Origin: Candidatus Sungiibacteriota bacterium
GTDB taxonomy: Bacteria; Patescibacteriota; Minisyncoccia; Sungbacterales; HO2-52-23
Length of the DNA: 64,000 nt
NCBI GenBank assembly: GCA_016432465.1
Contig: CP066690.1
Coordinates: forward strand, 57,233 to 121,232
Reading direction: 5' to 3'
The notes under the pieces are model-generated. The model searched no databases, was not told the origin of the DNA, and saw nothing but the letters and a program-made list of their open reading frames with translations. Below, one piece after another: positions 2,908 through 46,337 of this stretch. Made by a program: the position numbers and the translations under genes. Numbering within the stretch: the stretch's first letter is position 1; every line of letters starts with the position of its first letter.

Positions 2908-3834
2908 TTGCCTCTAAACAATGTGAATATCCAAGAACTTCACCATAAAAAAGAAGGGCTCCAAAAAGAACTCGCCAATCCCGAGATTTTTAAAGATCCT
3001 CAAAAAATTAAGGAACTCAGTATTGAACTGGGAAAAATAGAAAAAGAAATTAAAGAGGAGCAGAAATCGGGAGATAGCGGCGCGATACCCCAAAACGTCA
3101 TTATAGAGATCCGCGCCGGAGCCGGGGGCGAGGAAGCTTCACTTTTTGCGCAGGAACTTTTTAGTATGTACACTCATTTTGCCGCTAAAAGGGGGTGGAA
3201 AACAACGCTTCTTAATGAATCCCGCAGCGACCTTAGCGGCTATAAAGAAGTTATTTTTGAAATCAACGGCAAAGACGCGTATAAAACTTTACGTTTTGAA
3301 TCAGGGGTTCATCGCATACAACGTATCCCGGAAACTGAAAAATCAGGCCGCATCCATACTTCCACCGCTTCCGTGGCCGTATTACCGCAGGCGCGTGAAG
3401 TTGACGTTGAGATTAGACCGCAAGATATAAAAGTTGAGTTTTTCCGCTCCTCCGGCCCCGGGGGACAAAACGTAAATAAAGTTGAAACCGCGGTAAGAAT
3501 TTATCATTTACCGACCGGGCTTATCGTTACTTCGCAAGAATCACGTTCCCAACAAGCTAACCGCGAACGTGCTATGACCTTACTTCGCGCTAAGCTTCTT
3601 GACGCCAAAATGCAGGAAGAGGCAAAAAAAATGGCCGCTGAAAGGCGACAGCAAATTGGCACCGGAGACCGTTCAGAAAAAATCCGCACTTACAATTTTC
3701 CGCAGGACCGAGTTACGGACCACCGGATTAAAGAAAGCTTGCACAATATTGAATCTATTCTGGCCGGCAATCTCGACCCCTTGATCAATAAGTTATTGTT
3801 TCTAAAGGATTCTATCTATATCCCGCGCCAGTGA
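2908..3834 (+). CDS. prfA: peptide chain release factor 1
   Basis: GGQ motif (SGPGGQNVNK), RF1-type PxT tripeptide (PET), RF-1 domain conservation; TTG start; TGA stop. Confidence 0.85.
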   Translation: MPLNNVNIQELHHKKEGLQKELANPEIFKDPQKIKELSIELGKIEKEIKEEQKSGDSGAIPQNVIIEIRAGAGGEEASLFAQELFSMYTHFAAKRGWKTTLLNESRSDLSGYKEVIFEINGKDAYKTLRFESGVHRIQRIPETEKSGRIHTSTASVAVLPQAREVDVEIRPQDIKVEFFRSSGPGGQNVNKVETAVRIYHLPTGLIVTSQESRSQQANRERAMTLLRAKLLDAKMQEEAKKMAAERRQQIGTGDRSEKIRTYNFPQDRVTDHRIKESLHNIESILAGNLDPLINKLLFLKDSIYIPRQ

Positions 3835-5145
3835 AATAATCCGATTGGCGTAGGAACGGCAGACGTACCGCGTACAACTTGGCCTACCGGAAATGTAGGT
3901 TTTGGCGGCGCGTATTTCTCCTGCTTCGGTTTTTGCGTCAGCGCCGGCGTCAGCCAAAAATATAGCCGCGGCGGTAAACGCATCCTCAACGTTCCAAGGA
4001 CTGGAAGGATTATGCCCAGTAAGGCTGGCAACTCGTTTCTCAAAACGTAACCACGTTGTCGGAATAAACTGGGCCGGCCCCATTGCGCCGCCGCAGCCAT
4101 AATTTGGCCTGCGCGAGACTGGCATTTTATCAGGATCAAGATTTAGTTTACCCGTAATTTCAAAAAATGCCGCTTTTTCTGATTCTGCCTGCTTTCGTCT
4201 TCCAAGACGAATGTAGCAATTATACATATCCCGTTCCCAATTTCCGGTGCCAACGTTGGTGCCGACAGAAATTACCCCGTCTTCAAACTGCTTTCCGGTC
4301 TCAACTTCAAGAAGGGCCAATAAAAACGCGGTCCTAATTCCGGCGCGCTTGGCCGCAAGATCCGCAAAACGAATAGCATCTTCTGCCGTAATCCCTGTTT
4401 TTTCCAAATAAAAGAGCTGGGTTTTTAGGGTCGCAATGTCCCTCTTTTTTGACTTCAAAAGCTGCTGGAAAAGAGCTTCTTTGCCTTTGGTAAGACGGAG
4501 CAGTTCTTCTTTTTCTTTCTTTTTTTGCGCAAGAAATCTTCGTTCCACTTCCTGTAGCGATCGTAGATCTTGTTGCTCTTCTTCAAATTCTTCCAGTTCA
4601 ACTTTTTCTTTTTCCAGAAGCGTCTTATCCTCTTTAAATTCGCCTACTGCCTCTTGTATATTAGATTGCACCCGCTGGAGACTATTTAGAGAGTTGAAAA
4701 AATCGGACAAATTTTGATTTTTTAAAAGTATAGTGAGAGCATTATCCTGATCATATGCGTAAAGAAGGAAAAGACTTGCGCCCAGGGCGCGTCTGGACTT
4801 GTCAATTTTTTTGGCAAGCATTGCAATGCCTGCGCTTTTAGCCTGAATCTCAAGGGCGGTTTTTTTAATCACAAGCGCAAGACGTTTAATCTCAAGCTCG
4901 CGGCGTTTTATTTCTGTGTTAACCGTCTCAGTTTCGTTGGCGAGAGTCCGCGCTTCCCCCTGTACTTGCTGCAAATTTTTATCAAGTTCATTAGCTTCCT
5001 GCTCAAGCCTCTGCAACTGTCTTTCAAGCTCTGCGCGTTTGACAGGATCAAGCTCTTGGGCGTAAGCAGCTGTGCAGCCGGCCAGCAAAAATAGTCCCAG
5101 TGCTGCTGGGAAAATCCAACAAGATACCCTGTATTTGGATACCAT
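3802..5145 (-). CDS. secreted coiled-coil protein with C-terminal lytic transglycosylase (SLT-like) domain
   Basis: signal peptide, long heptad/coiled-coil region, C-terminal ...EVETG...GAMGPAQFIPTTW motif typical of SLT/goose-type lysozyme fold. Confidence 0.6.
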   Translation of the reverse strand: MVSKYRVSCWIFPAALGLFLLAGCTAAYAQELDPVKRAELERQLQRLEQEANELDKNLQQVQGEARTLANETETVNTEIKRRELEIKRLALVIKKTALEIQAKSAGIAMLAKKIDKSRRALGASLFLLYAYDQDNALTILLKNQNLSDFFNSLNSLQRVQSNIQEAVGEFKEDKTLLEKEKVELEEFEEEQQDLRSLQEVERRFLAQKKKEKEELLRLTKGKEALFQQLLKSKKRDIATLKTQLFYLEKTGITAEDAIRFADLAAKRAGIRTAFLLALLEVETGKQFEDGVISVGTNVGTGNWERDMYNCYIRLGRRKQAESEKAAFFEITGKLNLDPDKMPVSRRPNYGCGGAMGPAQFIPTTWLRFEKRVASLTGHNPSSPWNVEDAFTAAAIFLADAGADAKTEAGEIRAAKTYISGRPSCTRYVCRSYANRIISLARDIDRIL

Positions 5146-13100: not shown

Positions 13101-13320
13101 AGCCCAAACCCCAATTAAAATTTATATTAGAGTCAGTGCGAACAAATTTAAGATCGGTTAAGTCTTTATTGTCGTAGTAAGAGGCGGTAAAGGAGTTAGC
13201 CGCGACTGCGGAAAGAGACTGTATTGTTTCCGGACTTGTGGTTTGAGCAAAAGCCAAAAGCGGAACTGCCATCAAAGTTCCTAAAAATATGATTGAAAAA
13301 AGGGGGGGCGTAAATTTCAC
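10174..13320 (-). CDS. secreted protein with three PA14 domains and PT-repeat linker
   Basis: signal peptide; PA14-like blocks (FTxxTDDGxRLWIDGxLILDKWFDQxPTTY...HRIKVEYYENGG) x3; PTPTPTPT linker; central glycoside-hydrolase-like region. Confidence 0.7.
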   Translation of the reverse strand: MKFTPPLFSIIFLGTLMAVPLLAFAQTTSPETIQSLSAVAANSFTASYYDNKDLTDLKFVRTDSNINFNWGLGSPDPSIAPDTFSVRWEGDWSFAATGTYRFTVKTDDGMRMYLDGEVILDKWFDQGPTTYTIDRVIAAGNHRVKVEYFENGGAALANVSWQVLNEASPTTTVAPAPTPTPTPTPTPTPTPTITTAPTPIYTSEFLPAGWVFEAEKDMLHRIGRSEADGWSVNTAQDSKNHLSYGPYVRSLPAGATTADFYLMIDNNTADDFPVVRLDIFDSTDGKILVERDIRRREFTSTLTYQPFGLDFTSILNHALEFRVWWYDIAYIRQDKVVIHPAGISKNTFFGTYFNNRDFTGQILTRIDAGIRFDWGTGSPDPAIAPDTFSVRWEGDWDFAAEIYTFAVRTDDGIRLWIDGALILDKWFDQAPTTYTFNRTLTAGTHRIKVEYYENGGAAVASLDWLPATASTARWENISAVKVTEANIKEAFDLLPLPEGLPPVQINLWEAIAGFGKKYQGNRFKKPGLFKQVDDGDFGPQNRLEFATGRWLSMILDATDQGGALDWPVLDVWGTNGTFWGIAETGQRKNPSNWFDGPGNPGWGGVFWPENTKFPDILPLAANSVALPGDLGKTYSLGADNRSTDNWWLWQKPANYAPAPCQFKSWQQVTGGTPGPFGMKISALRKLDLGGEVGIRWILVLSSPPNPNLNEPWGIDVGPGDKPPGASYDWGFIMYGHDHFTAGPQGPAGGWQRSVWNSSGLRQAEVRIWTCPTLEPIINATLPGTPSVLSNPSADTFCEGGVSKATIAWPEAGRGSQGYIVDIDNDDNWNNGFWNKSLPAGTLSTIAPDGFNGLSGVSGPLLLQNGASYRVRVFYPAAGAHSPINNFIASCQNGTIPRNAFRSEYYASRNFTNRKIVRTDKLISFDWGNGSPDSSIPSDNFSVRWEGDWDFTAGTHRFTARTDDGLRLWIDGALILDKWFDQAPTTYIFDRTLIAGTHRIKVEYYENGGAAVAQVSWLQISASSPIRRTLAAIQQSFVGMLKRISTLLK

Positions 13321-14318
13321 TTTCTTGCAATTACTTTTTTCACCGCTTCTTTGATATTACTTACCCCCATCCCAAAATGTTCAACTAACTCTCTGGGTTC
13401 ACCTGATTCACCAAACCGATTTTGCACCCCTATAAATTCCATGGGTACGGGATAGTGCCTTGCTAAAATTTCAGCAACCGCAGAACCCATGCCTCCCGCG
13501 ACTTGATGCTCTTCAACAGTGACCACATATCCCGCATCTTTGGCTGCTTTAACTATGGTTTCCTCATCCATAGGTTTTATGGACGGGCTATTGACTACCC
13601 TTATTGAAAACCCTTCTTGCTCAAGTTCCGAAGCGGCCAAAATCGCATTATGCGTCAGCGGACCGCAGGCAATAATTGAAACATCCGGCTTTTTCCCCGA
13701 TTCCTGCCAAAAAACCTGCGCTTTTCCAATTTCAAACGGCGTCTCCTCTGTAGTAAATACCGGGGTTTTTTCGCGGGCGTAACGGCTGTAACACGGGCCT
13801 TCAACTTTGGACATAGCATAAGTCACTTTCTTTGCTTCCCACATATCACAGGGCGCAAAAACCTGCATATTTGCAATTGGCCGCATAAGGGCAATATCTT
13901 CAATGGCTTGGTGCGTTGCGCCATCCGGTCCCACGGAAACTCCGGCATGCGCTCCTCCGATTTTTACGTTCGCCTCGTTATAGGCAATGGTGGTGCGAAT
14001 CTGTTCCCAGTTTCTGCCCGGACTAAACATGGCATAACTTGCAATAAAAGGAATTTTACCCATAAGCGACATTCCGGCGGCAACCGACGCCATATTCTGC
14101 TCCGCCACTCCCATTTCCACAAATCGCTCCGGAAATTTTTTGGCAAATGCTTCAGTACGGGTTGATTCGGTAAGGTCTGCGCAGAGTGCCACCACATTCG
14201 GGTTTTCGTCCCCGGCCTGCAGTAATCCCAAACCCCAACCATCTCGTGTGGGTTTTTGCTCAAGAGACTTCAGGTCAAGAATATTCTCAACCAATTTCAT
14301 TTTAGAATTAATCGGCAT
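13317..14318 (-). CDS. transketolase, C-terminal section
   Basis: pyrimidine-binding and C-terminal domains of TK; split-gene form. Confidence 0.85.
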   Translation of the reverse strand: MPINSKMKLVENILDLKSLEQKPTRDGWGLGLLQAGDENPNVVALCADLTESTRTEAFAKKFPERFVEMGVAEQNMASVAAGMSLMGKIPFIASYAMFSPGRNWEQIRTTIAYNEANVKIGGAHAGVSVGPDGATHQAIEDIALMRPIANMQVFAPCDMWEAKKVTYAMSKVEGPCYSRYAREKTPVFTTEETPFEIGKAQVFWQESGKKPDVSIIACGPLTHNAILAASELEQEGFSIRVVNSPSIKPMDEETIVKAAKDAGYVVTVEEHQVAGGMGSAVAEILARHYPVPMEFIGVQNRFGESGEPRELVEHFGMGVSNIKEAVKKVIARK

Positions 14319-14324
14319 ACCTTT

Positions 14325-14879
14325 TCACTTTTTACGCAATGCATTCAGAATATTTAGGGTTGAATGAATTTTTGCCCATTTTCTTAAATATTTCCAGTTG
14401 AGTCTCTTTTGAAATTTAATAACTACTTCAACATCTCGTAACTGAAGTTCCGAACCGCTTTCTTTATGCCAACGCAGTTTATTTAAAATAAGATCCTCCG
14501 GGGATATAAAATAAATCTTTCTCCCGGCAATTATCCTTGACACCCGTCGCTGAAGCTCCTCTCTTGAAAATTCGTCCTTCTTGCTAACCCAAAAGTCCAC
14601 CTTAATCCCGGACTCCACATGAATAAAATTAAATTCACCCTTGCGCTCAAATGCTCTTATAACCATACGCTCATCCACATAGCTCATTTCCGAAATCCCT
14701 CTTAGCGCAGCCGTAAGTTTCCCAATCTGCGGTTCAAAAAGTTCAATAATCACATCAATGTCAAGCGTAGAGCGTGGTTTCCCCCACACTGATACGGCAT
14801 AACCTCCGGTCACAGCGTAAGGAATTCGGAGGCGCTCAAGAATTTCTGCGACTTTTCCGAGTAGCTCTCGAAAATCCAT
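14325..14879 (-). CDS. minimal nucleotidyltransferase-fold protein (Pol-beta superfamily, AbiEii/MNT-like)
   Basis: N-terminal GGYAVSVWGKPRSTLDIDVII = hG[GS]...DxD NTase motif. Confidence 0.5.
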   Translation of the reverse strand: MDFRELLGKVAEILERLRIPYAVTGGYAVSVWGKPRSTLDIDVIIELFEPQIGKLTAALRGISEMSYVDERMVIRAFERKGEFNFIHVESGIKVDFWVSKKDEFSREELQRRVSRIIAGRKIYFISPEDLILNKLRWHKESGSELQLRDVEVVIKFQKRLNWKYLRKWAKIHSTLNILNALRKK

Positions 14880-15203
14880 GAGGGTTCCCTAATTTATTAA
14901 GTTCCCGGAGAAACATTGAAAAATCGGAGGCGTATTTCAATCTTTTATCCGCCGACATTTTTCTAAAAATATCGTCTTGGGTGTCCTGGGCTGATTTTCT
15001 ATATAATTTTTCCATTTTTTATTTCTTTACCCCCAAATAAGAAAAGGTGGTACTCAATTTGTTTATTTCAGTTATGGCTTTATTTGCTTCGCTTAACAGA
15101 AAAAGTGTCGTACTAATAGCAAAAATTACAAGCACAAAAAAATGTAGCGCCGAGCGTTTCGATGAACTCATGACTGTAATAGAGGTTATCTAAAAACCCC
15201 TTA

Positions 15204-15322
15204 TTCTACTGCAATTGCAGAATTTTGGCTACGGCTTCGTCCGTCCTCCTCGGCGTATATTAGCCATATACGCCTTCGTCGTCCGTCCTAGCCTCACTCA
15301 AAATTCTGCAATTTCGCTACGA
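15204..15322. repeat. conserved ~120-nt hairpin element, copy 1
   Basis: arms ttctactgcaattgcagaattttggct / ctcaaaattctgcaatttcgctacgaa around inner palindrome cgtatattagccatatacg; second copy at 43450-43608. Confidence 0.7.
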
Positions 15323-15352
15323 AACGGAGTTCTTAGATGACCTCAAACAGAC

Positions 15353-15565
15353 TTAAAACGCGGTTCCGCCTCCTTTATGATAAATCGCCCCGAGCTTCAG
15401 CCAAATCGCAATCAAAACCAGCACAATCGCGTCGTTAAACCAGTGGTCCGAGGTATACCCAAATGCAAAACCGCGCGCCTCGGCAATCCAGGCAAGAACC
15501 AAAGACAGCACCCCCAAAAGACCAACCACAATACTGATTTTTGTTAGATTGTTAGCTTTATTCAT
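15353..15565 (-). CDS. small membrane protein (2 TM)
   Basis: 70-aa hydrophobic ORF. Confidence 0.4.
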   Translation of the reverse strand: MNKANNLTKISIVVGLLGVLSLVLAWIAEARGFAFGYTSDHWFNDAIVLVLIAIWLKLGAIYHKGGGTAF

Positions 15566-15580
15566 AATTAATATTTACTA

Positions 15581-15844
15581 CTACTGTTGTCCTCCGCCAG
15601 AACCGCCGCATGTACCGCAGCCGTACTGCCCGTGATGCTTTTTAAGACCGAGGGCAAGTACTCCGCCTACGAGCGCGTTCCAATACCATGTAGTAACCGT
15701 AACTCCCAAAAACTCTCCGCTGCGTAGATAAGCAATCAGGCCGCCTATCAAGGCAAAAAACGCCAGACCCCACAAAATCTTGCCAAGCATGGGCTTGGAG
15801 CAACACTTCATATGCCATTTATCATGCATTATCCCTTGCATCAT
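15581..15844 (-). CDS. small membrane protein with Gly-rich/CxxC tail
   Basis: 87-aa ORF, TM helices, C-terminal GCGTCGGSGGGQQ. Confidence 0.4.
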   Translation of the reverse strand: MMQGIMHDKWHMKCCSKPMLGKILWGLAFFALIGGLIAYLRSGEFLGVTVTTWYWNALVGGVLALGLKKHHGQYGCGTCGGSGGGQQ

Positions 15845-15882
15845 AGATTTAAAAATTATTAACTATACGACCTTTAAGAAAT

Positions 15883-16770
15883 TTACTCATGTTCGCTATG
15901 GATTTTCCCACCGAGCGTTCGTAATCTTGAAAGAAATTCTTTGGTTTGTTCCGCGGCGGGAAAAACATCCGTGGGTCCCTTACCAGGAGGCACGCCATGC
16001 CATCGGTAATCAAATTCAATCTCCGGTACCCCCTTTCCCGGAACGGTATGCGCGATAACAACCACCGGTTTTTCAAAAATTCCCTGCGCGGTCTCATACG
16101 CATTAACAATCTCTTCAAAATTATGACCGTTTATTTCAAGAACGTGCCAATTAAAAGACTCGTATTTGGCGCGCAACGGCTCAAGCGGCATAATATTTTC
16201 GGTCATTCCGTCAATCTGAATATTGTTGCGATCAATAAGCGCGGTTAAATTATCAAGTTTCAGTTTGCCAGCAAGCATGGCCGCCTCCCAAGTTTGCCCT
16301 GCTTCTTGTTCGCCATCTGACATCAAACAATATATATTAAATTTCTTTTGGTCCATTTTGGCGGCAATGGCCATACCTACTGCCTGCGAAAGTCCTGAAC
16401 CCAAGGGCCCGGAAGTTGTTTCCACGCCCGGAAGAGCAGTACGATGCGGGTGGCCCTGAAGACGCGTGCCGAGTTTTCGCAATGTTTTTAATTCTTCCAC
16501 CGTAAAATATCCCGCACGAGCCATGGCGGCGTAACGTACGGGGCAGATGTGCCCGTTGGATAAAATTAGCCGATCACGTTCCGACCAATCCGGATTTTTA
16601 GGGTCATGACGCAAAATATGAAAATAAAGCGCTGTGAAGATATCGGTCATGCCCAGCGGCCCGGCAGTATGTCCAGATCCTGCTTCGGTCAACTCCATCA
16701 CAATATCCTGACGGATGGTATTGGCCATCTCTTCCAGAAATTTGATTTTATCATCGTGTAAATGAGACAT
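15883..16770 (-). CDS. transketolase, N-terminal (TPP-binding) section
   Basis: GSGHTAGPLG and SNGH motifs of TK N-terminal domain. Confidence 0.85.
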   Translation of the reverse strand: MSHLHDDKIKFLEEMANTIRQDIVMELTEAGSGHTAGPLGMTDIFTALYFHILRHDPKNPDWSERDRLILSNGHICPVRYAAMARAGYFTVEELKTLRKLGTRLQGHPHRTALPGVETTSGPLGSGLSQAVGMAIAAKMDQKKFNIYCLMSDGEQEAGQTWEAAMLAGKLKLDNLTALIDRNNIQIDGMTENIMPLEPLRAKYESFNWHVLEINGHNFEEIVNAYETAQGIFEKPVVVIAHTVPGKGVPEIEFDYRWHGVPPGKGPTDVFPAAEQTKEFLSRLRTLGGKIHSEHE

Positions 16771-20868: not shown

Positions 20869-21206
20869 CTCCCATTCACCTCCTTTCTGAAGAACTAAAT
20901 TCCCGTGGCGGAATTGCCACGGGAATTATTTTCCAAAAGTTTTTGATTAAAACCTTCTTAGTTTAGACAATAATTTCCATGGCAAAATATTGCAAAACAC
21001 CGCAACGACGTGCGGTTCGCTTCACATTATTAAACATGGAACAAAGTTGCTGCATAATAATTGATCTTGGGTGCTAGCAATGGTATTCCGGCCCGCGCTT
21101 CGCTGAAGCTTCGGCGAGGCGAGCAAACCCTATCCAGCACATAACAAGTTATGTACTGGACTCCGTTCTCCCGCTTTCAGCGGGATCACTTCGCTTTCCC
21201 AACATT

Positions 21207-21325
21207 ACTGGCGTACCCTACTTTCCCAGGCGCGGATTGGCACCAAGTATCATTGGGCCTAGATGCTTTCACTACTGAGTTCGGAATGGAATCAGGTGGA
21301 TCACATCTAGGTAAAACACCAGCAA
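21207..21325 (-). rRNA. rrf: 5S ribosomal RNA
   Basis: reverse complement matches 5S core CCACCTGAttCCATtCCGAACTCAGtAGTGAAA...GCGCCTGGGAAAGTAGG; terminal helix pairs. Confidence 0.85.
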
Positions 21326-22509: not shown

Positions 22510-23130
22510 GTATGTTCGCTTCGCTCACAACGCGATACCAATATACGAATGGCATGCGAATGATACGAATTGCGAATTTCCTCTATTACTAGAGGCATGG
22601 ACTATATCTTCATCCCCCTGCATGCCTGCGGAAGGAGCTCGCGTATTATATTTTGCTTAAAGCAAAATATCTTTCCGAACTTTATTCGGAAAAGTCTCTA
22701 CGGGGTTAATGCTTTTTTTATAGAAGCTCTGGTTTCAGCAAACTTAGCGACATCTTGAATAGCTTGCTGAATTTCAGTTTCAATAATATCAACCGGTCGT
22801 TTCCCTGAATCAATCTCCGCATCAGTCCAATTTCTACGACCAATCGGGTCTTCCAATTGTTGAAGTCGTGCAACGAGCCTTGACGATGCCTCGCTCAACA
22901 AAAGATTATTTTCTTCCAATTGATTCAGAAGTTCTTGGTTGTTTAATTGTAATTCTTCTTTCATATGCATAACTTCCCTCGGTATTATCCTATCAAATTT
23001 GGTTCAAAAACTCAATAGGATTTCACCGATATTAGCGAGATTTTTATGCAGGATTACTCCTGCAGCACCCCGATGATCGTGATGGCCAGTCACGTGCAAA
23101 CTAGTTAACCAGAGAACTAGCTAACTAATA
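22510..23130 (-). mobile_element. intervening sequence in 23S near the conserved ...CACCUC/GAUGUCGG... peptidyl-transferase segment (intron class undetermined)
   Basis: conserved GGCACCUC and GAUGUCGGCUC exon blocks separated by ~620 nt; boundaries lack canonical group I/II termini. Confidence 0.5.
22698..22970 (-). CDS. small coiled-coil protein encoded within 23S intervening sequence (sense to rRNA)
   Basis: 90-aa ORF with RBS gagggaag; heptad-rich; no HE motifs. Confidence 0.35.
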   Translation of the reverse strand: MHMKEELQLNNQELLNQLEENNLLLSEASSRLVARLQQLEDPIGRRNWTDAEIDSGKRPVDIIETEIQQAIQDVAKFAETRASIKKALTP

Positions 23131-23511
23131 AACTATTGTTGAGGTGCCGAACTCCGCCGTCGATATGAACTCTTGGGCGGAACTAGCCTGTTATCCCCAG
23201 AGTAGCTTTTGTCTGATAATCTTTGGCCTTGTTCTAGAAAGCGATAAATACCCACACCTCGGAACTGAATCCGAAGCGTGAATAATTACCATGGCCATCG
23301 GTTCACTAAGCTCTGCTTTCGCACCTGCGCGGGATATCCCCCTTGCAGTCAAGCCGGCTTGTGCCTTTACACGTCCACCCCGATTTCCATCCGGGGTAAG
23401 CCGACCTTAATAGACCACTCCATTACTTTTTGGGAGTGTAGTGCCCCACCAAAACTGCCCACCAGACACTGTTCCAGTTGGGCTTCACCGCGAAGCCCAC
23501 AGTTAAGTTTA

Positions 23512-23640
23512 AGGTTAAAAGTTTATTGTTAAGGTTGTGAGTTGTTAGTTTAAGTTAATGTTTAACCTAAACCAAAAACTTACAACCTAAACTTACAGGT
23601 TGCCAGAGCAACCGAAACTTTAAACTTAAAACTGTCGTGT
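23512..23640. repeat. AT-rich nested-palindrome element inside 23S
   Basis: gttaaggttgtgag...tttaagttaatgtttaacctaaac... related to 25185, 27305, 27843 copies. Confidence 0.55.
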
Positions 23641-24027
23641 GAACACTGCGGTGTTCCCAACCGGTTAGAATTTAAAACTTCAAAGAGTGGTATTTCACTG
23701 ACGGCTCCTCTTGATCCGGAAACCAAGAATCAAAGCCTGCCACCTATGCTACGCATCAAAGTTCTAAACCCAATATCAAGTTGCAGTAAAGCTTCTGGGG
23801 TCTTTTCGTCTAACCACAGGTATCCGGCATCTTCACCGGAATTGTATTTTCACCGGGCTCCTCGTTGAGACAGTCCCCTAGTCGTTACGCCTTTCGTGCG
23901 CTTCAGAACTTACCTGAAAAGGAATTGCGCTCAATTACGTTATCACCGAGCACTCAATTTTGGATTTGACAAAATTGTCAAAATTGGTTATGTTGAATAT
24001 GGTACGTTCTACCTACTGGAGGTAAAC

Positions 24028-24237
24028 ATGAAGTTCAAGGACTTGGAGATTGGGGATCATTTTGTTCTCCCAAACCATATCCCAACCAGGAACGGTATCC
24101 CTTCACCCATCGATGCTGTACAGCTTGAGGTTTTTCGTAGGATCACCACTCATGGACGCATTAACGTGCTGTCCGTAAAATCTTTGGCTCCAGGATACGT
24201 TAACCATAACGCTCCGGTCATCAAACTTATCATGTGA
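24028..24237 (+). CDS. small protein (69 aa) encoded antisense inside the L1931 intron
   Basis: TTGACA(23966-23971)-17-TATGTT promoter, RBS ggaggt 24018-24023, ATG 24028, stop 24237, hairpin gccaccgccggtggc + TTTTT 24242-24262; cassette bounded by perfect 18-nt inverted repeat 23946-23963 / 24270-24287. Confidence 0.45.
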   Translation: MKFKDLEIGDHFVLPNHIPTRNGIPSPIDAVQLEVFRRITTHGRINVLSVKSLAPGYVNHNAPVIKLIM

Positions 24238-24348
24238 TTTCGCCACCGCCGGTGGCATTTTTAAATAATCCAAAATTGAGTGCTCGGATCCTCTATGTCG
24301 CCATAGAGATCGGACTATATCTTACAAACAGAAGTCAGGTGTTGGAAA

Positions 24349-24912
24349 TCAGAAGTCAGAATGCTTCCGACTTCCAATATCCGATGTCTGATATCTGTTG
24401 TTCTGGCGTATAGTCTCTGAGGATTCAAGATATTGAGATGGTTTCTTACGATTCATTTGCTCTACTGTCCTCGCAATTTCTTTCATACCCTTCTTGGTTA
24501 GATGGATTTTCCGTTCCATCATATCAAGAATTTTTATGAATCGTTTGAAGTCACTTTGTTTTGCAGTACGGAGCGGATATTTCTGAAAGAAAGGAATTAT
24601 TTTCTCACGTATATCTTTCGTAGACCTAACACAATAACGATATAGCGGTTCACGGTGATTATCGTAACGCTTATTGATGAAAATTTTTCCGCAGCCGAAG
24701 AATTTTTGTAATTCTTCAAGAGCGAATAAACTTTTTTCACCTTGCGTTACCACAAACTCCGGAAAAACCTGCCATCCATTTTTAAGAATCCTATTACGAA
24801 AGACTCCTACAGAGAAACATCCTTCTCCGTCTACAAAACCAGTTATCCATCCCAAATAATAATCTTGCCTTTCCTGCTGATTATCTGCACTGGACACATT
24901 TTTACTTGGCAT
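24349..24912 (-). CDS. LAGLIDADG homing endonuclease (single-motif type)
   Basis: LGWITGFVDGEGCF dodecapeptide motif, 187 aa, inside intron and sense to rRNA. Confidence 0.85.
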   Translation of the reverse strand: MPSKNVSSADNQQERQDYYLGWITGFVDGEGCFSVGVFRNRILKNGWQVFPEFVVTQGEKSLFALEELQKFFGCGKIFINKRYDNHREPLYRYCVRSTKDIREKIIPFFQKYPLRTAKQSDFKRFIKILDMMERKIHLTKKGMKEIARTVEQMNRKKPSQYLESSETIRQNNRYQTSDIGSRKHSDF

Positions 24913-25184
24913 AATTTTAGAAGATTTTATCCCCTAAGGATAATTATACCTTAGTAGTGCCAGATACTCCAGACTTTCCAGCATATAGTCCCGACGTTTC
25001 ATCTAAAAATTAGGATGAAGAAGTCGGGATCCCGATTTTACACTATGATTATTTTATAAATAGTGCATCGGGACCAGATTTTATTAAAGCAGCGCGCTTT
25101 CTACTTTAAGACCCTTATAGTTAGGGCCGACATTGACGAGGGCTTGATACCTAGAGCCGCGAGGCGGCCTCGTATGTTTATAAG

Positions 25185-25325
25185 TTTGTAGTTAAAAGTT
25201 TTGAGTTTAAGTTAAAAGTGATTAGTTTAAGTTAACGTTAACCTAAACATTAAACTAAAAACTTAAACTTAGGAGGCCGCTAGGCCGGAACCTAGAACTA
25301 AAAACTATAAACTAATCGAGGTCGC
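25185..25325. repeat. AT-rich nested-palindrome element inside 23S (near E. coli ~1860)
   Basis: ...gtttaagttaaaagtgattagtttaagttaacgttaacctaaac...cttaggaggccgctaggccggaacc... Confidence 0.6.
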
Positions 25326-26151
25326 CCCGCGACCAAGGTATTTAACCTTCTCGCATTGGTCAGGCGTCACCCCCCATACATCCTCTTACGAGTTAGCGGG
25401 GAGCTGTGTTTTTGGTAAACAGTCGCCAGGGGTACTTTTGTTGCAGCCCCTAAGCCCTTGCGGGCCGGGGCAGACCTTATTGCGAACTTACGGTCGCTTT
25501 TTTGCCGAGTTCCTTAACGAGGAATCACCCATTCGCCTTAGTGTTCTCCACCAACCCACCTGTGTCGGTTTACGGTACGGTCGCATGCTGATATTTTAGA
25601 CGGTTTTCTGGGAAACGCGCTTTGCAAAATTTCTAATGGATTGCTCCAAAAGATTTTCTCCGCGCTTGGAACCGAGCATTACCTCCATGGACGGATTTTC
25701 CTATCCACGTTCCTTACGCTAAGAACGAAAATCCAATAATTCGCTTTGCATACTGCGTTCCGTTACGCCATCAAAACAACATGCGGTGCTGGAATATTAA
25801 CCAGCTGTCCATCAGCTACGGCTTTCGCCATTGCCTTAGGACCGACTAACCCTCAGTTGATTGCCATTGCTGAGGAAACCTTGGGTTTTCGGCGGTCCGG
25901 GCTTTCACCGGACTTGCGGTTACTTGTGCCAACATTCTCTCTTCTTAACGCTCCAGTCGCCCTCGCGGGTCAACCTTCACTGCATTAAGAATGCTCTTCT
26001 ACTGCTTGCGCAACTGCCAATTGCCAACCGCTAACTCTTAATTTTTATTAGAAATTAGAAGTTAGAAATTCGAAGTTGCGCAAGCCCGTAGCTTCGGTAC
26101 AACGCTTAGCCCCGAGTATCTTTGGTGCAGTGTCTCTAGACGAGTGAGCTG

Positions 26152-26194
<43 letters not shown>

Positions 26195-26923
26195 CGCTGT
26201 TTGAGAAACTCCACCGCCTTATTACACTTAGCGTTGATTTAGGGACCTTAGCTGACGATCTGGGCTGTTGCCCTCTTGCACGATGGAGCTTAGCCCCCAC
26301 CTGCTGACTCTTGGAATAACTATACGCGCATTCGGAGTTTGGTTGGTTCGCCGAGCTTTCGCCCTTACGAACCATCCAGTAGCTCTACCTCGCGTATCGT
26401 ATAATCCAAGGCTAGCCCAAAAGCTATTTCGAAGAGAACCAGCTATTACCAGATTCGATTAGCTTTTCACTCCTTACCACAGGTCATCCGAAGGCGTTGA
26501 ACGACCCACCGGTTCGGGCCTCCCCCCGATGTTACTCGGGGTTCACCCTGCCCATGGCAAGCTCATCTGGCTTCGGGTCTTTTGAATACTACCTACAAAA
26601 GCTTCTTAGCTTATAGCTTCCTAGCTTCCTAGGAACGAAAATAAACTCGCACCTAAAAAGCTAAGAAGCTAAAAAGCTAGAAAGCTATTGAAAACGCGCT
26701 ATTAACACTCGGTTTCCCTACGACTCGGTGCCTCGCGGCACTTAGTCAAGCAGTATCCAAAAACTCGTTGGCTCATTCTTCAATAGGCACCACAGCAGAG
26801 ATCAGAGGTCGGATGTCGGAAATCAGAATTTTAGTTCCGACTTCTGATTTCCGATCTCTGATCTCCTTTGTGTCCTTGTAAGCATATGGTTTCAGGTACT
26901 ATTTCACCGCCCTCACCGGGCTG

Positions 26924-26962
<39 letters not shown>

Positions 26963-27304
26963 GTTCCGGGAGTATTTAGCCTTGGCGGACTAGTTCCGCC
27001 TGCTTCCTGCCCAGTCTCCATACGGGGCAGTACTCAAGAACCCCGACGCACTATTAGAAATCTAACAATGAAGTCGGGGTCCCGACTTTACGTCGGGATA
27101 ATAACTAGGAGCATGCAATATTTTTCAAATACGGGGCTTTCACCCTCTTTGGCCGGCCTTTCCAGGGCCGTTCTTCTAAATAAATCGCAACTTTTTGCTC
27201 CTTCGGATCGCTCCGAGCGCTATTATCTTACAACCTCCCGGTCTCCATTAAATAAATTCAATAGAAACCGGGATTTGGGCTGATCCCTTTTCGCTCGCCG
27301 CTAC

Positions 27305-27450
27305 TGGGGGAATATATCAGTTTATAGTTAAAGGTTTTAAGTTTAAGTTAAAAGTTATTAGTTTAAGTTAGCGTTAACTTAAACTTTAAACTAAAAACTT
27401 AAACTTAGGAGGCCGTTAGGCCGTAACCTAAAACTAAAAACTGACATTCT
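27305..27450. repeat. AT-rich nested-palindrome element inside 23S (near E. coli ~200)
   Basis: ~95% identical to copy at 27843-27975. Confidence 0.65.
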
Positions 27451-27507
27451 TTTCTTTTCCTCCGCTTACTGAGATGTTTCACTTCAGCGGGTATCGCGCC
27501 AAGCACT

Positions 27508-27695
27508 CATTTCTATACACTTGACAAATTTATAAATATAAACTATGCTAAGATCAACCAAGGGGGTTTGGTTACAACCACCGATAGCCTGGCCCGGTCC
27601 TACCGGACTTCCCAGGCCGCTGGTTGGTTAGACCCCCCTGCCACAGGTTTTCCCTGTGGCCTCTTTTTTGAGTACAGAAATGAGTGCTCGGCGAA
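27508..27695 (+). promoter_or_regulatory. antisense promoter-terminator cassette within 23S 5' domain expansion helix
   Basis: IR cgccaagcactcatttct / agaaatgagtgctcggcg flanks TTGACA(27531)-17-TATGCT and hairpin ccacaggttttccctgtgg + CCTCTTTTTT (27636-27668); no ORF with RBS. Confidence 0.4.
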
Positions 27696-27842
27696 TGCGT
27701 TTTACGCAAACGGGTTTCCCCATTCGGACATCGCCGGATCAAAGGTTGCTCGCCACCTCCCCGACGCTTATCGCAGGCACGCCACGTCCTTCATCGCCTC
27801 CGGAACCCTAGGCATCCACCATATGCTCTTAATTAATTCTGT

Positions 27843-42374: not shown

Positions 42375-43442
42375 TTACTTTACAACTTCTTTTGCCCTAT
42401 TCCACCCCAAGTTCATAAAAATAGAAAAATTCTCACCCGAACTTCGGCCAATTGTACCACCCCGATGTGGCCCGACAATGCACTTTTTGGTGGCGTTAAA
42501 CGCGAGCCCCCCGGAATCCCCGTAAAAAGACGCCACCCGGCTTACCATGTAAGGATGCACCTCTGTCTCACTGTTGGTGTATTGAAAAATCGGACTTCGG
42601 TAGGTATAAGTCTGATCCTGCGAGAGCTGGGTTTTCATCCCTTTAATATCGGCATGTACCACGGCTTCTCCTTCTAGTTTGGACAGATAATTCTGGTCAA
42701 CGTAATTTGAAGGATAACCAAAATGAAGCAGTTTATCTCCCAGCATCTTAGGATTAGTGCATAGGGGATAAGGGACTTGAGGATATTCCTGAAAAATGGC
42801 TCGGGCTTCCGGAAAAGACTCAAGTTGTGGCATCCGTAAAATCGCGACGTCAATCCCCTCTTCATCATGCCGCCTTATTACCTCCTGCAGATTTTCAATG
42901 GTGGCGTGAAGATAATGAATTGGTTTTCGCTCGCGAGGAAAAATTACCGAACAATTCTCGCTTGCCGAATCCTTTACAACATGGGCAGCGGTGACAACTA
43001 TTCCGCCCTTTAACATGAATCCGGAACCAACGTACTTCCCGAGGCCGTCAGAAGACGGACATTCAATTTTTACCACCGAGCGCAAAATCTCTGCTTCGTC
43101 AGACGATGAAAATTCCGGTACAGGTGGCAGCACTTCTTCCGGAGCCAGCGCCAATCCCTCCGGTACTGTGGTGGCAGAAGAAACTGCAGGAGGAGGCGGC
43201 AGTTTTGGTAAAAAATCTGGCGGCGCCAAAACCGGTTCCCTTGGTAATGGTTTTACCGGAACTTTAGATAGCGGCGGGGGGACTGTATTTTGCTTCTCGT
43301 CTGTGGTGGTTGCCGTTAGAGAAAGCTGTGTTTGCTCTGACGGAGGCAAAGTTATTGTAGTTTTTCGTTCCCCAATATCCTGAAAAAACAAAAAACCCAA
43401 AGAAGCCGCCAAAACCAGCACTAAAACCATATACTTAGTCAT
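42375..43442 (-). CDS. secreted trypsin-like serine protease (S1 family)
   Basis: signal peptide, Pro-rich linker, TAAHVV (His), GDSGG (Ser) motifs. Confidence 0.7.
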   Translation of the reverse strand: MTKYMVLVLVLAASLGFLFFQDIGERKTTITLPPSEQTQLSLTATTTDEKQNTVPPPLSKVPVKPLPREPVLAPPDFLPKLPPPPAVSSATTVPEGLALAPEEVLPPVPEFSSSDEAEILRSVVKIECPSSDGLGKYVGSGFMLKGGIVVTAAHVVKDSASENCSVIFPRERKPIHYLHATIENLQEVIRRHDEEGIDVAILRMPQLESFPEARAIFQEYPQVPYPLCTNPKMLGDKLLHFGYPSNYVDQNYLSKLEGEAVVHADIKGMKTQLSQDQTYTYRSPIFQYTNSETEVHPYMVSRVASFYGDSGGLAFNATKKCIVGPHRGGTIGRSSGENFSIFMNLGWNRAKEVVK

Positions 43443-43449
43443 AACTTAA

Positions 43450-43608
43450 GACCTCTTACACAATAACAATTCTACTGCAATTCCAGAATTTTGGCTGCAA
43501 ATCGTTCAGGCTTCGTCGGCTTATATGTGGCATATAGGCCTCCTCATCCTTCACGATTTTCGCTCAAAATTCTGGAATTTCGTCACGAATGCTTATTGTG
43601 CAAGAGGT
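43450..43608. repeat. conserved hairpin element, copy 2 (extended arms)
   Basis: ttctactgcaattccagaattttggct...ctcaaaattctggaatttcg with compensatory g/c swap relative to copy 1; outer arms gacctcttacacaataac/ttattgtgcaagaggtc. Confidence 0.7.
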
Positions 43609-43676
43609 CTTTGATTTTAACAAACTCACCCCCCACATTCGAGGGGTGAGTTTTTAAACGGTTAGTGTCTAAGTCA

Positions 43677-46337
43677 CTATCGGAAGAACTCTATAATATT
43701 TGCGAAGAACCCTTTCCGCGGCGCGCTTCCCGAAGGCGGGGGTGGCGGCGGTTGTGTAGTTCCTCCGCTGGGAGGCGGTGGCTGAATCGTACCGCCGCTT
43801 GGAGGAGGTTGCTGGATTGTTCCACCACTTGGAGGAGGCGGCTGAATCGTACCGCCGCTTGGAGGTGAAAACTGCTGGAATGTGCCGCCACCAGATGGCG
43901 GTTGGAAACCATCTCCCGAAGGCGGATAAAAAGTCCCGCCTTGTCCTGTTCCAAAACTGCTTCCTTCGTGTGGTTGAAATGAACCGCCGCCCGAAGGCCC
44001 AAACGTACCGCCGGGCTGCTGAAAACCTCCTTCCTTCGGAAAGGGGGTAAAAATACCTGGAGTTCCGGGACGCGGTCCAATTCCTTCCGAAGGGCCAGCT
44101 CCTTCTGGTCCCTGCGGAAATGGTCCGAAAATACCGGGAGTTCCGGGAATCGGTCCCATACCGCGCGGTTGCGGAAACCCAGTTGAACCTTCCCCCCTAG
44201 TCCCTCCTGCTCCTCCCGGAAACTCACCCGGTCTCCCCGGAAATTCTTGTATGCCACGTCCGGGAAATTCGCCTCCGCTGCCGCCTGGAAATCCTCCTTC
44301 CTCACCCCGAAAACCGCCTTGTTCTCCTGGAAATCCACCCTGACCACCAGGAAATCCACTCGGCCCACCCGGAAACTCACCCGGTCTTCCGGGAAAACCG
44401 CCGGGGCCGCTCGTCTCTCCCGGGGGCGTCATTCTGAAATCTTCAAATCTCTTTTGGAAAAAATCTTTTCTTTCTTCCTCGTTGCCGAATTTTTGCCCTC
44501 GCAAGTCTTCAAAATTACTCTTAAAGAATTCTTTTCTCTGCCCATCATTTTCAAAACTGGGCAATTCATCCTGATGTACCTCAATTCTCAAATTATTGCG
44601 AATCTGCGGAAATTCATGCCCCGGAGGAATGCCTCCTTCCGGCGGACGCGCGCCCGGAGGACCTCCAGGAGGACCCATACTAAAACATTCCTCTTTGTGT
44701 TCAGAACAATACTTGATACACTCCTGCGGCGAGGTGCAGCCTCCCGGGCCTACGAATCCAAACCCTCCGGGACCACCCGGACCGCCGCCCATTGGACCGC
44801 CCGGACCTCCCGGAAATCCGCCGCCTTCTTCACCCGGAAATCCTCCTACTCCTCCGGGGAAACCACCGGGACCACCCGGACCAAATCCGGGCGGAGGACC
44901 AAATCCCTGACCGCGGAATTGTCCTTCCAACTGCCTAAATTCTTCAAAACGCTGTCCTGACTCCTGATCAAAACGCCGCATCTGCTCTTCAAATCCTCTT
45001 ACGCCCGGAGGCGGACCAAAATCTTCCCTGCGTACCTCAAACCTGCGTTCTGTAAATTGCTTAAGCATGGCCCGCGCTTGTTCCGGCGGCATGCCTCCCT
45101 GCGCCGCGCCAAAAGCCACGCACTCTTCCGCGTGATTAGGGTCAGTACAATAGGCGCGACACTCGTCGTCATTTTTGCAGCCGCCGGGCCCGCCCTGACT
45201 TTTTACTACCTCCTGAATTTTACGTCCGGCCTCAAATTGCTTCTCTTCTTCTTGGCTTATAAGCCCTTGTTTTTTGGCAAAACCAAAACATTCTTCTTGA
45301 TGAGCAGGGTCATTGCAATAATCCTGACATTGCCTTCCCCGACATCCTCCGGGTCCGCCCTGCTTGGCAACATTTATAAATTTCTTGGCCCGTTCCAGCT
45401 CTTCTTTCGGCATAAGACCCTCCCGCTCCGCATGTTCTATGCAGACTTCCGTATTATCCGGGTTTTCGCAGAATTGACGGCACTGCTCCGGACCCCGACA
45501 ACCGCCGGGTCCTGCTTTCCCAGCAAATTTGCGCGCCCTTTCCACCTCCTCTTTGGACATAAACCCGCTTTTCTCCGCAAAGTCAATACATTCACTCTGG
45601 TGCGCCGGGTCTTCGCAGTAAGCGCGGCACTGCTCTTGTCCTTTACATCCGCCCGGACCGCCGGCTAGTCCCGCTTTTCTTACACGCGCTGCCTCTTCTT
45701 TCTTTATAAACCCGTTTTCCTCGGCAAAAGCTAAACATTCTTCAGTATGCGCGGGGTCATTACAATAGGAACGGCATTGCTGTTCTCCTTGGCAACCGCC
45801 CGGACCTGTTTTGGACTTTCTTAGTTTATTTATTCGCGCCAGTTCTTCTTTGGGTATCAAACCGTTATCAGCTGCATACTGAAAACATTCTTCTTCGTGT
45901 GCCGGATCATTACAATATGCTTCACAGGCGCGTCCCCTACAGCCTCCGGGTCCGGGTTTTCTGGCGCGTTCGGCCTCCGCTTTAGACATAAAGCCATTTT
46001 TTACCGCAAACTCAATACATTCATCCTCGTGGCCCGTGCCATCGCAATAAGCCCGGCATTCGTTTTCCGACTTACATCCTCCGGGACCTCCTTGATTACG
46101 CACAGTTTCGGCCTTGGCCGCGCTACTGCTGTCCACCAAGCCGTGTTTTTTGGCAAAAGCCAAACATTCAGTGCCGTGAGCCGAGTCGTCACAATAAGAC
46201 TTACAGACATTTTTATCGGCACAATTACCCAATTCCGGAATCGGAAACTCAATATCAAAAGGCGAGCTTGCCGAGAGAAACAGGGCAAATGCAAAAAACC
46301 CTACGCTAAATAGTGAAATTAAAAGTAGTTTCTTCAT
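43677..46337 (-). CDS. giant secreted repeat protein: ~11 Cys-rich ~45-aa modules plus Gly/Pro-rich low-complexity tail
   Basis: signal peptide; repeats GPGGCxGxxxCxxYCxDPAHxxECxxFAxxxGxxxKEExERAxK; C-terminal GGFPG and PPPSGGTIQ repeats. Confidence 0.75.
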   Translation of the reverse strand: MKKLLLISLFSVGFFAFALFLSASSPFDIEFPIPELGNCADKNVCKSYCDDSAHGTECLAFAKKHGLVDSSSAAKAETVRNQGGPGGCKSENECRAYCDGTGHEDECIEFAVKNGFMSKAEAERARKPGPGGCRGRACEAYCNDPAHEEECFQYAADNGLIPKEELARINKLRKSKTGPGGCQGEQQCRSYCNDPAHTEECLAFAEENGFIKKEEAARVRKAGLAGGPGGCKGQEQCRAYCEDPAHQSECIDFAEKSGFMSKEEVERARKFAGKAGPGGCRGPEQCRQFCENPDNTEVCIEHAEREGLMPKEELERAKKFINVAKQGGPGGCRGRQCQDYCNDPAHQEECFGFAKKQGLISQEEEKQFEAGRKIQEVVKSQGGPGGCKNDDECRAYCTDPNHAEECVAFGAAQGGMPPEQARAMLKQFTERRFEVRREDFGPPPGVRGFEEQMRRFDQESGQRFEEFRQLEGQFRGQGFGPPPGFGPGGPGGFPGGVGGFPGEEGGGFPGGPGGPMGGGPGGPGGFGFVGPGGCTSPQECIKYCSEHKEECFSMGPPGGPPGARPPEGGIPPGHEFPQIRNNLRIEVHQDELPSFENDGQRKEFFKSNFEDLRGQKFGNEEERKDFFQKRFEDFRMTPPGETSGPGGFPGRPGEFPGGPSGFPGGQGGFPGEQGGFRGEEGGFPGGSGGEFPGRGIQEFPGRPGEFPGGAGGTRGEGSTGFPQPRGMGPIPGTPGIFGPFPQGPEGAGPSEGIGPRPGTPGIFTPFPKEGGFQQPGGTFGPSGGGSFQPHEGSSFGTGQGGTFYPPSGDGFQPPSGGGTFQQFSPPSGGTIQPPPPSGGTIQQPPPSGGTIQPPPPSGGTTQPPPPPPSGSAPRKGFFANIIEFFR

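Follow-up and report, generated by a model that had tools for sequence, protein, structure and literature searches.

Two elements with complementary arms lie in the window, as we call the whole 64-kb stretch of DNA analysed here, and the question that they raise is what such elements are and how they came to be there. The first-pass annotation left three possibilities open: a structured ncRNA, an element of REP/MITE type or an elaborate terminator. Of these the MITE held, on the strength of terminal inverted repeats (TIRs), 3-bp duplications and transposase-bearing elements with the same ends, while the ncRNA and the terminator did not. Both elements are very probably copies of a CPR/Patescibacteria MITE family moved by an IS5-type transposase. 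They are regarded as MITEs because the family has TIRs and a duplication of fixed length, is small, non-coding and multicopy, and shares its ends with an autonomous partner, which was found for end type A only.

The two copies in the window and their surroundings

Alignment of the two elements gives a common left arm, ATTCTACTGCAATT[G/C]CAGAATTTTGGCT, and a common right arm, CTCAAAATTCTG[C/G]AATTTCG..ACGAA. With up to three mismatches, the left-arm pattern occurs four times in the 64-kb window against 0.14 expected, and the right-arm pattern twice against 0.04. These values are far above chance and confirm that two hairpin elements exist; the arm patterns and nhmmer profile searches find two copies only in the window. 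The compensatory difference described between them, G...C in one copy and C...G in the other, is present on both sides of the stem with pairing kept, as seen by reading and by alignment. Hairpins were thus correctly placed by the first-pass annotation, which nevertheless drew them too narrowly, since the outer arms pair too. Copy 1 occupies window positions 15182-15344 (163 bp) and copy 2 positions 43449-43610 (162 bp), with limits set by ungapped inverted-repeat matching; those from RNAfold ran too far into the flanks. The outer arms are unrelated in sequence between the copies (GAGGTTATCTAA / TTAGATGACCTC in copy 1, AGACCTCTTACACAATAA / TTATTGTGCAAGAGGTCT in copy 2) and pair in both, each copy being a single hairpin of 163 or 162 nt. 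The fold energy of copy 1 is -60.8 kcal/mol on the plus strand (z -8.8) and -79.6 on the minus strand, and that of copy 2 is -69.7 kcal/mol on the plus strand (z -9.2) and -81.1 on the minus strand; over both copies and both strands the z-scores range from -8.8 to -13. At the level of the family, copies measure 159-164 bp and are crossed by short chance ORFs only.

Copy 2 (43449-43610, plus strand) is a complete MITE of the 'type A' subfamily, with ends AGACC...GGTCT that have one and no mismatches to AGACCTCTTGCACAATAA, and it is the best nhmmer match to the family (152-162 bits). Its left TIR, AGACCTCTTACACAATAA (43449-43466, plus strand), is the 18-mer that also ends full-length ISs in loci L055/56, L060/66, L078 and L094, and its right TIR is TTATTGTGCAAGAGGTCT (43593-43610, plus strand). 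The inner left arm CAATTCCAGAATTTTGGC (43478-43495, plus strand) was located by the arm pattern and corresponds to helix 3 of the consensus, in which 94.5% of cells are paired; the inner right arm CTCAAAATTCTGGAATTTCG (43563-43582, plus strand) was located by the arm pattern and the consensus structure. Between them, the fold places an apical stem-loop, GGCTTATAT-GTGGC-ATATAGGCC (43518-43540, plus strand), whose helix 6 covaries with double changes in 9 of 10 pairs. This stem-loop corresponds to the 'palindromic core' tatatNNgccatata of the first description, which turns out to be palindromic only approximately, reads tatatgtggcatata in copy 2 and varies between subfamilies. Copy 2 is a typical member of type A, the subfamily with demonstrated duplications and partners.

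Copy 1 (15182-15344, plus strand; nhmmer 90-101 bits) has the same inner core with diverged, 'type B' ends (GAGGTTATCTAAAAACCCC...GATGACCTC), which form an inverted repeat at 12 of 14 positions. Inverted-repeat matching places its left TIR at 15182-15200 and its right TIR at 15326-15344 (both plus strand), flanked by ATA and AAA without a clear duplication. The inner left arm CAATTGCAGAATTTTGGC (15212-15229) and the inner right arm CTCAAAATTCTGCAATTTCG (15297-15316) were located by the arm pattern, and the apical stem-loop GGCGTATAT-TAGCC-ATATACGCC (15252-15274) by sequence and fold, all on the plus strand. Similar ends are found in L053 (511-674), L015 and L022. Copy 1 is most readily understood as a relative that is older or was mobilised in another way.

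As had been noted earlier, the minus-strand genes upstream of the two copies are predicted to encode membrane or secreted proteins. Copy 1 is intergenic between minus-strand genes and follows the stop codon of a gene for a 70-aa membrane protein (15353-15565). The surrounding region (13317-16770, minus strand) contains a split transketolase, with its N-terminal half at 15883-16770 and its C-terminal half at 13317-14318, about 1.5 kb apart. Between the halves lie two small membrane-protein genes, MITE copy 1 and a pair of genes for 59-aa and 184-aa proteins (DUF6036, nucleotidyltransferase-like), and the whole stretch looks like an accretion of insertions. In six Logan contigs of the same strain, a strain-level comparison, copy 1 is identical in all six.

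Copy 2 is likewise intergenic between minus-strand genes, and it ends 6 nt before the start codon of a gene for a trypsin-like protease (42375-43442). This protease is catalogued for a Candidatus Sungiibacteriota MAG with a 923-kb contig, from which the window derives. On its other side, a separate small terminator-like hairpin (43629-43645) follows the gene for an 886-aa secreted protein. In the strain of the window itself, Logan contigs stop within copy 2, as short-read contigs are expected to do at a repeat. The 886-aa protein itself (43677-46337, minus strand) comprises about nine Cys-rich modules in tandem (GPGGC...C..YC.DP.H..EC..FA), after which comes a long tail rich in Gly and Pro, and homologues of it are encoded near MITE copies in L005 (771 aa) and also in L102 (854 aa). 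Elsewhere in the window, the bacterial 23S rRNA gene (23046-27842, minus strand) measures 4797 bp for a 2925-position model, which implies about 1.9 kb of insertions (introns or intervening sequences); the 5S gene (21205-21324) comes after it. Insertions in rRNA genes are often reported for CPR.

Terminal repeats, target-site duplications and IS5-type partners

A metagenome scan with the 18-mer end AGACCTCTTGCACAATAA gave 68 loci. When all approximate left and right ends were paired across the collected loci, 49 TIR pairs resulted, among them three spurious pairings and five full-length ISs. Identical 3-bp direct repeats flank 29 of the 49 pairs, compared with one or two of 49 in four controls in which either flank was shifted by 3 or 6 bases. 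The duplicated triplets are ATA/TAT (14), TTA/TAA (8), AAT/ATT (4), CTA (2) and ACT (1), and the flanking triplet is an A/T-rich 3-bp target-site duplication of type-A insertions. For example, copies with outer arms AGACCTCTTGCACAATAA / TTATTGTGCAAGAGGTCT have the same three bases on both sides in direct orientation, and the three copies in L024 have three different duplications (AAT, ATT and TAG, relative to the element). The terminal bases are complementary at 12-14 of 14 positions in nearly all copies. At copy 2, the left flank TTA (43446-43448) and the right flank TTG (43611-43613) match in two of three bases, which is consistent with a decayed duplication. With inverted-repeat matching, no clear duplication was seen at copy 1 or at the other copies of types B and C.

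Outside the hairpin elements there are 32 matches to the 18-mer, several of them with an inverted 18-mer about 1 kb away. The same 18-bp TIR brackets elements of 970 bp (L055/56), 1041 bp (L060/66), 1080 bp (L078) and 1007 bp (L094), and the 1080-bp element is also found at the ends of contigs L065 and L090. The 970-, 1041- and 1080-bp elements each hold one intact ORF of 290-303 aa; the gene in L094 is split into two ORFs. All three intact proteins match PF13359 DDE_Tnp_4 (E values of 1e-25 to 1e-28, 90-100 bits) and PF13613 HTH_Tnp_4 (45-49 bits) above the Pfam cut-offs. In an NCBIfam scan of two of the three, the best model was the IS5 family, NF033581, with scores of 85 and 104 bits against an equivalog cut-off of 140. 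Judged from these matches, the partner is an IS5-like element of PIF/Harbinger type, and, since the scores of 85-104 bits fall below the cut-off of 140, a divergent lineage outside the curated IS5 equivalog groups of NCBI. Duplications also flank the IS elements (ATT/ATT in L094, AAT/AAT in L109).

Between transposases with identical ends, protein identity is only 30-59%. These ends are found as well around short non-coding elements of 38, 73, 160, 167, 206 and 360 bp with unrelated interiors, and the 18-bp ends are the only sequence that the autonomous elements and the hairpin element have in common. MITEs commonly share the ends alone with their autonomous element.

Contig L090, which ends in a partner IS, carries recA, ftsK and rpoC, and its RecA is 75-79% identical to that of named Patescibacteria, Uhrbacteria, Buchananbacteria and Magasanikbacteria; the CPR-like RecA indicates that the partner IS is resident in CPR genomes. 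For the L060 transposase, 2337 relatives were found at E<=1e-30, most of them on contigs of about 1 kb, as collapsed repeats would be. Transposases 60% identical to it occur in L105-L108 (e.g. L106 3934-4985) with the ends AGACCTGTTGTGCAATTA, on contigs that encode the archaeal ribosomal proteins L31e and S19e, which suggests, from the gene content of these contigs, an IS group common to CPR bacteria and co-occurring archaea. Given the 30-59% identity and the archaeal relatives, the shared ends do not single out one enzyme as the mobiliser in a particular CPR lineage. By tblastn, no transposase was found in the window or in the 19 copy-bearing genome loci, which leaves any current mobility in this genome putative, and no autonomous partners for end types B (including copy 1) and C were found among the collected loci.

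Spread of the family and conservation of the hairpin

A species scan of one genome per species with the pattern CAGAATTTTGG-N50-80-TCAAAATTCTG gave 25 loci, which divide into 19 clear relatives and six chance matches. The relatives come from MAGs named Saccharibacteria, Doudnabacteria, Sungiibacteriota, Paceibacterota, Moraniibacteriota and Falkowbacteria (at least six CPR candidate phyla) and from unplaced Parcubacteria and Patescibacteria group MAGs; four MAGs gave two or three copies each. A profile built from the 19 relatives retrieved more divergent copies, and nhmmer found three copies within 8 kb in L024. The first-pass annotation had claimed selection on structure from two copies; the genome-wide arm search and the larger sample yield many copies beyond these two, with mismatches that are systematically compensatory; distinct copies number 47 in all.

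The element is built from TIRs of 18-28 bp, a short helix with a conserved asymmetric loop, an inner helix of 15-16 bp (canonically CAGAATTTTGG / TCAAAATTCTG) and an apical stem-loop. In addition to types A and B, a third end type, GGGGCTGTTGCCAAATGCC, occurs in L003, L008 and L017, with related ends in L006 and L021. The same core is therefore combined with at least three end types, none of which is as well conserved.

Pairing was assessed on a MAFFT alignment of the 47 copies, with pairs counted on the copy 2 hairpin as the structure (62 pairs). Standard pairs fill 84.7% of cells, compared with 35-49% when the partner is slid by 1-3 columns; 52 of the 62 pairs have changes on both sides, compared with 32-41 when the partner is slid; and the covariation score is 0.383, compared with at most 0.139 in controls. 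None of 500 shuffles reached the observed pairing values. Complementary variants of the 15-bp inner arm number more than 30, among them AATCATGATTTTTCG / CGAAAAATCATGATT and AATTCCAGAATGTCG / CGACATTCTGGAATT. Several features outside Watson-Crick pairing are conserved as well: U.G at columns 40/177 in 43 of the 47 copies, C.U at 43/175 in 41 and a bulged G.U at 59/158 in 36. On the aligned strand there are 83 G.U and 144 A.C wobbles, a small excess on the opposite strand to which no meaning can be attached, since the copies are related to one another. Across phyla, the ends are less conserved than the inner arms, an uncommon pattern in a MITE that hints at some role other than mobility. The conserved, covarying inner hairpin suggests selection on the fold-back structure.

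Such covariation is what a functional structured ncRNA gene or a cis-regulatory RNA across CPR phyla would produce, for instance a riboregulator that hides a ribosome-binding site in the outer stem. The very strong covariation, the unpaired and mismatched positions conserved across phyla, the hairpin z-scores of -9 to -13 and the AAGAGG in the outer stem, which adjoins start codons in many copies, all fit this explanation. It is very unlikely, however, given the target-site duplications and the ends common to transposase-bearing ISs, and given that copies stand in both orientations, also between convergent or divergent genes, beside neighbours that are mutually unrelated. Relative to the nearest long ORFs, 15 copies are sense to both, 10 are antisense, nine lie between convergent genes and five between divergent genes, and this mixture is not expected of a dedicated RNA gene or cis-regulator. 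Moreover, the ratio of G.U to A.C is alike for copies that are sense to the adjoining genes (30:48) and for antisense copies (21:34), so that the pairing constraint is not tied to the host transcript and selection at the level of mRNA gains no support. The window has no relevant Rfam match at gathering thresholds; at E<=10, copy 1 gives nothing and copy 2 chance-level matches only. No promoter-like site was found at copy 2. There is scarcely any likelihood that the element is an elaborate intrinsic terminator or an mRNA-stabilising 3' hairpin of the upstream genes. Both window copies do lie just after minus-strand stop codons, and many copies of the family abut a stop codon, but no T-run follows the hairpin on either strand, and the only terminator-like site near copy 2 is the separate hairpin at 43629-43645, none overlapping the copy itself. 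Copies are also found inside read-through operons (rpmC-rpsQ in L035, before rplI in L023) and between divergent genes. A REP/BIME palindromic repeat moved by a RAYT (Y1/HUH) transposase, or an IS200/IS605-derived PATE, would likewise be intergenic, palindromic and multicopy. REP/BIME and PATE units measure 20-40 nt, however, and lack the combination of terminal inverted repeats with target-site duplications, whereas here a unit of about 160 bp shows 3-bp duplications and shares identical ends with DDE-transposase partners, which makes this origin exceedingly improbable.

A different objection is that the 'compensatory' pattern does not reflect selection at all, and that each subfamily began as a fresh palindrome (by fold-back copying of one half) or was homogenised by intramolecular gene conversion. 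Subfamilies of near-identical members do exist (the copy at L045 7088 equals that in L097), and the G.U and A.C mismatches show no transcript-linked bias. On the other side, the U.G at 40/177, the C.U at 43/175 and the G bulge at 59/158 persist in subfamilies with wholly different helices, as do the unequal loops TTCTAC / GTCACGAA, and de novo formation of palindromes would erase such features. These persistent asymmetric features argue against each subfamily arising as a fresh perfect palindrome, and we consider the objection unlikely to hold; in the aligned copies, the persistence of mismatches favours compensatory change, probably under a constraint on pairing. A further proposal, tentative and on balance improbable though clearly less so than the objection just discussed, is that the inner hairpin is a functional module carried by the transposon, either a portable intercistronic RNA device or a single-stranded DNA fold-back for IS5-type transposition. 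As an RNA device, the element would have an outward ribosome-binding site in each end, masked by the long stem and opened or cut by RNase III or by upstream translation. If true, such a module would explain a core that is conserved beyond the transposase-binding ends and that occurs with three end types.

Insertion beside genes, related systems and significance

All 47 distinct copies are intergenic, and many abut a stop or start codon. In L035 the rpmC-rpsQ spacer of a ribosomal-protein operon holds an element whose first base completes the rpmC stop codon, and in L023 a copy is located before rplI. Read outward, the end repeat is ...GCAAGAGGTCT, with AAGAGG 4-16 nt before adjoining start codons. 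An ORF of at least 60 aa starts within 30 nt outward of 26 of 77 family ends, and seven of these read GGTCT-T-ATG. In the left TIR of copy 2, AAGAGG (43452-43457, minus strand) stands 9 nt before the protease ATG (43442-43440), the stretch reading AAGAGGTCTTAAGTTATG. The element end may thus act as a portable ribosome-binding site, a candidate for one borne by a transposon, and the AAGAGG of copy 2 may serve the protease gene in this way.

Under the preferred reading as a MITE, an IS5-type transposase would bind the end repeats and move the element in trans by cut-and-paste. A/T-rich trinucleotides would be frequent at stop codons and just before start codons, and their abundance there could explain why copies lie flush against gene ends in compact genomes. 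The outward AAGAGG would let a gene directly downstream of either end keep a ribosome-binding site, which could make insertions beside genes tolerable. The fold-back structure may in turn matter for the spread or the tolerance of the element, as single-stranded DNA, as read-through RNA (e.g. an RNase III substrate) or in arm-to-arm repair.

Filled and unfilled sites were compared by flank-to-flank BLAST among the collected loci, which gave one informative pair, L035/L054. The rpmC-rpsQ spacer of L054 measures 76 nt and has no element, with flanks only about 75% identical to those of L035 at the nucleotide level. No exact empty site (the same flanks with a single trinucleotide) was recovered among the orthologues compared, which are about 57% identical in protein or 75% in nucleotide sequence. 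At the site in L102 orthologous to that of copy 2, between the secreted-protein gene and the protease gene, there is a different palindromic element of about 270 bp (3147-3416), with ends GGAGAGCAGGATTCAAACTAGCGTCAA / TTGACGTTAGTTTGAATCCTGCTCTCC, also given as GGAGAGCAGGATTCAAAC; the protease there is 57% identical. This element may represent a second MITE family. The L035/L054 and L102 comparisons fit insertion, though not cleanly. In L103 (1-33) and L104 (1-92), contigs end 33 and 92 nt upstream of the orthologous protease gene, and these assembly breaks fall at the position where the window has its MITE.

The same intergenic site holds different MITE subfamilies in L061 (2992-3152) and L097 (4146-4306), with flanks about 79% identical. 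The L097 copy is identical to a copy elsewhere (L045 7088), which rules out compensatory evolution in place as an account of the difference between L061 and L097; the site instead suggests repeated insertion at a hot spot (TAT|G before the start codon) or replacement by conversion.

Among the closest known systems are the IS5/PIF-Harbinger MITEs (Tourist-like in plants, IS5-related in bacteria), which are likewise short, non-coding and multicopy, with the TIRs of a DDE_Tnp_4-type transposon. They also resemble the present family in their A/T-rich 3-bp duplication and in having the ends alone in common with the autonomous element. A duplication of 3 bp is also typical of canonical Harbinger transposons, which are related to the IS5 family (PMC12730594). 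The present family differs in that its interior hairpin covaries, is conserved across phyla above the ends and has a core that occurs with at least three end types. The partners, at 970-1080 bp with a 290-303-aa DDE transposase and 18-bp ends, are comparable in size to the ISL2 and IS1031 groups of the IS5 family, which measure 0.9-1 kb and encode a transposase of about 275 aa (PMC3196728). They differ from these groups in scoring 85-104 bits, under the NCBIfam equivalog cut-off of 140.

Two other families of bacterial repeats invite comparison. Correia elements (NEMIS) of Neisseria are MITEs of 100-160 bp that are co-transcribed, form a long hairpin and provide signals for adjacent genes, and they are like the present family in size, inverted-repeat ends, position next to genes and long hairpin. 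However, Correia elements duplicate TA and carry promoter and IHF sites, whereas here there are a 3-bp duplication, partners and an outward signal resembling a Shine-Dalgarno sequence; we know of no autonomous partner for Correia elements. ERIC/IRU sequences of enterobacteria are imperfect palindromes of about 127 bp that lie in transcribed intergenic regions in either orientation, occur across genera and show compensatory changes. They share with the present family their intergenic palindromes, either orientation and a hairpin kept by compensatory changes. The CPR family differs in its inverted-repeat ends, duplications and transposase; to our knowledge, ERIC has no defined inverted-repeat ends, no duplications and no known transposase.

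The genomes of CPR/Patescibacteria are tiny and streamlined, and the usual view is that they hold little mobile DNA. The literature searched contained no account of MITEs in CPR. One MITE family spread over MAGs that bear the names of six or more CPR candidate phyla indicates that small transposons are active there. Copies flush with start and stop codons, even in ribosomal-protein operons, mean that transposons reshape gene boundaries in these genomes, and such transposons may move between lineages. Furthermore, the family breaks up short-read assemblies, and it could pass for a structured RNA in covariation screens, which calls for caution in covariation-based RNA discovery. The element is thus of a familiar kind, a MITE, in a family newly seen in CPR, and matters chiefly for the genome dynamics and assembly of CPR.

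Two further repeats were seen close to copies of the family. The MITE copy in L072 (3904-4088) contains a nested, perfect 20-nt palindrome, CCCTGCCTGCCGGCAGGCAGGG, next to its right inner arm, and in L024, a Parcubacteria contig, another short repeat, GGCGAGCCCATCGGGCTGTAGCC, recurs near three MITE copies (3690-3715 and 4640-4680).
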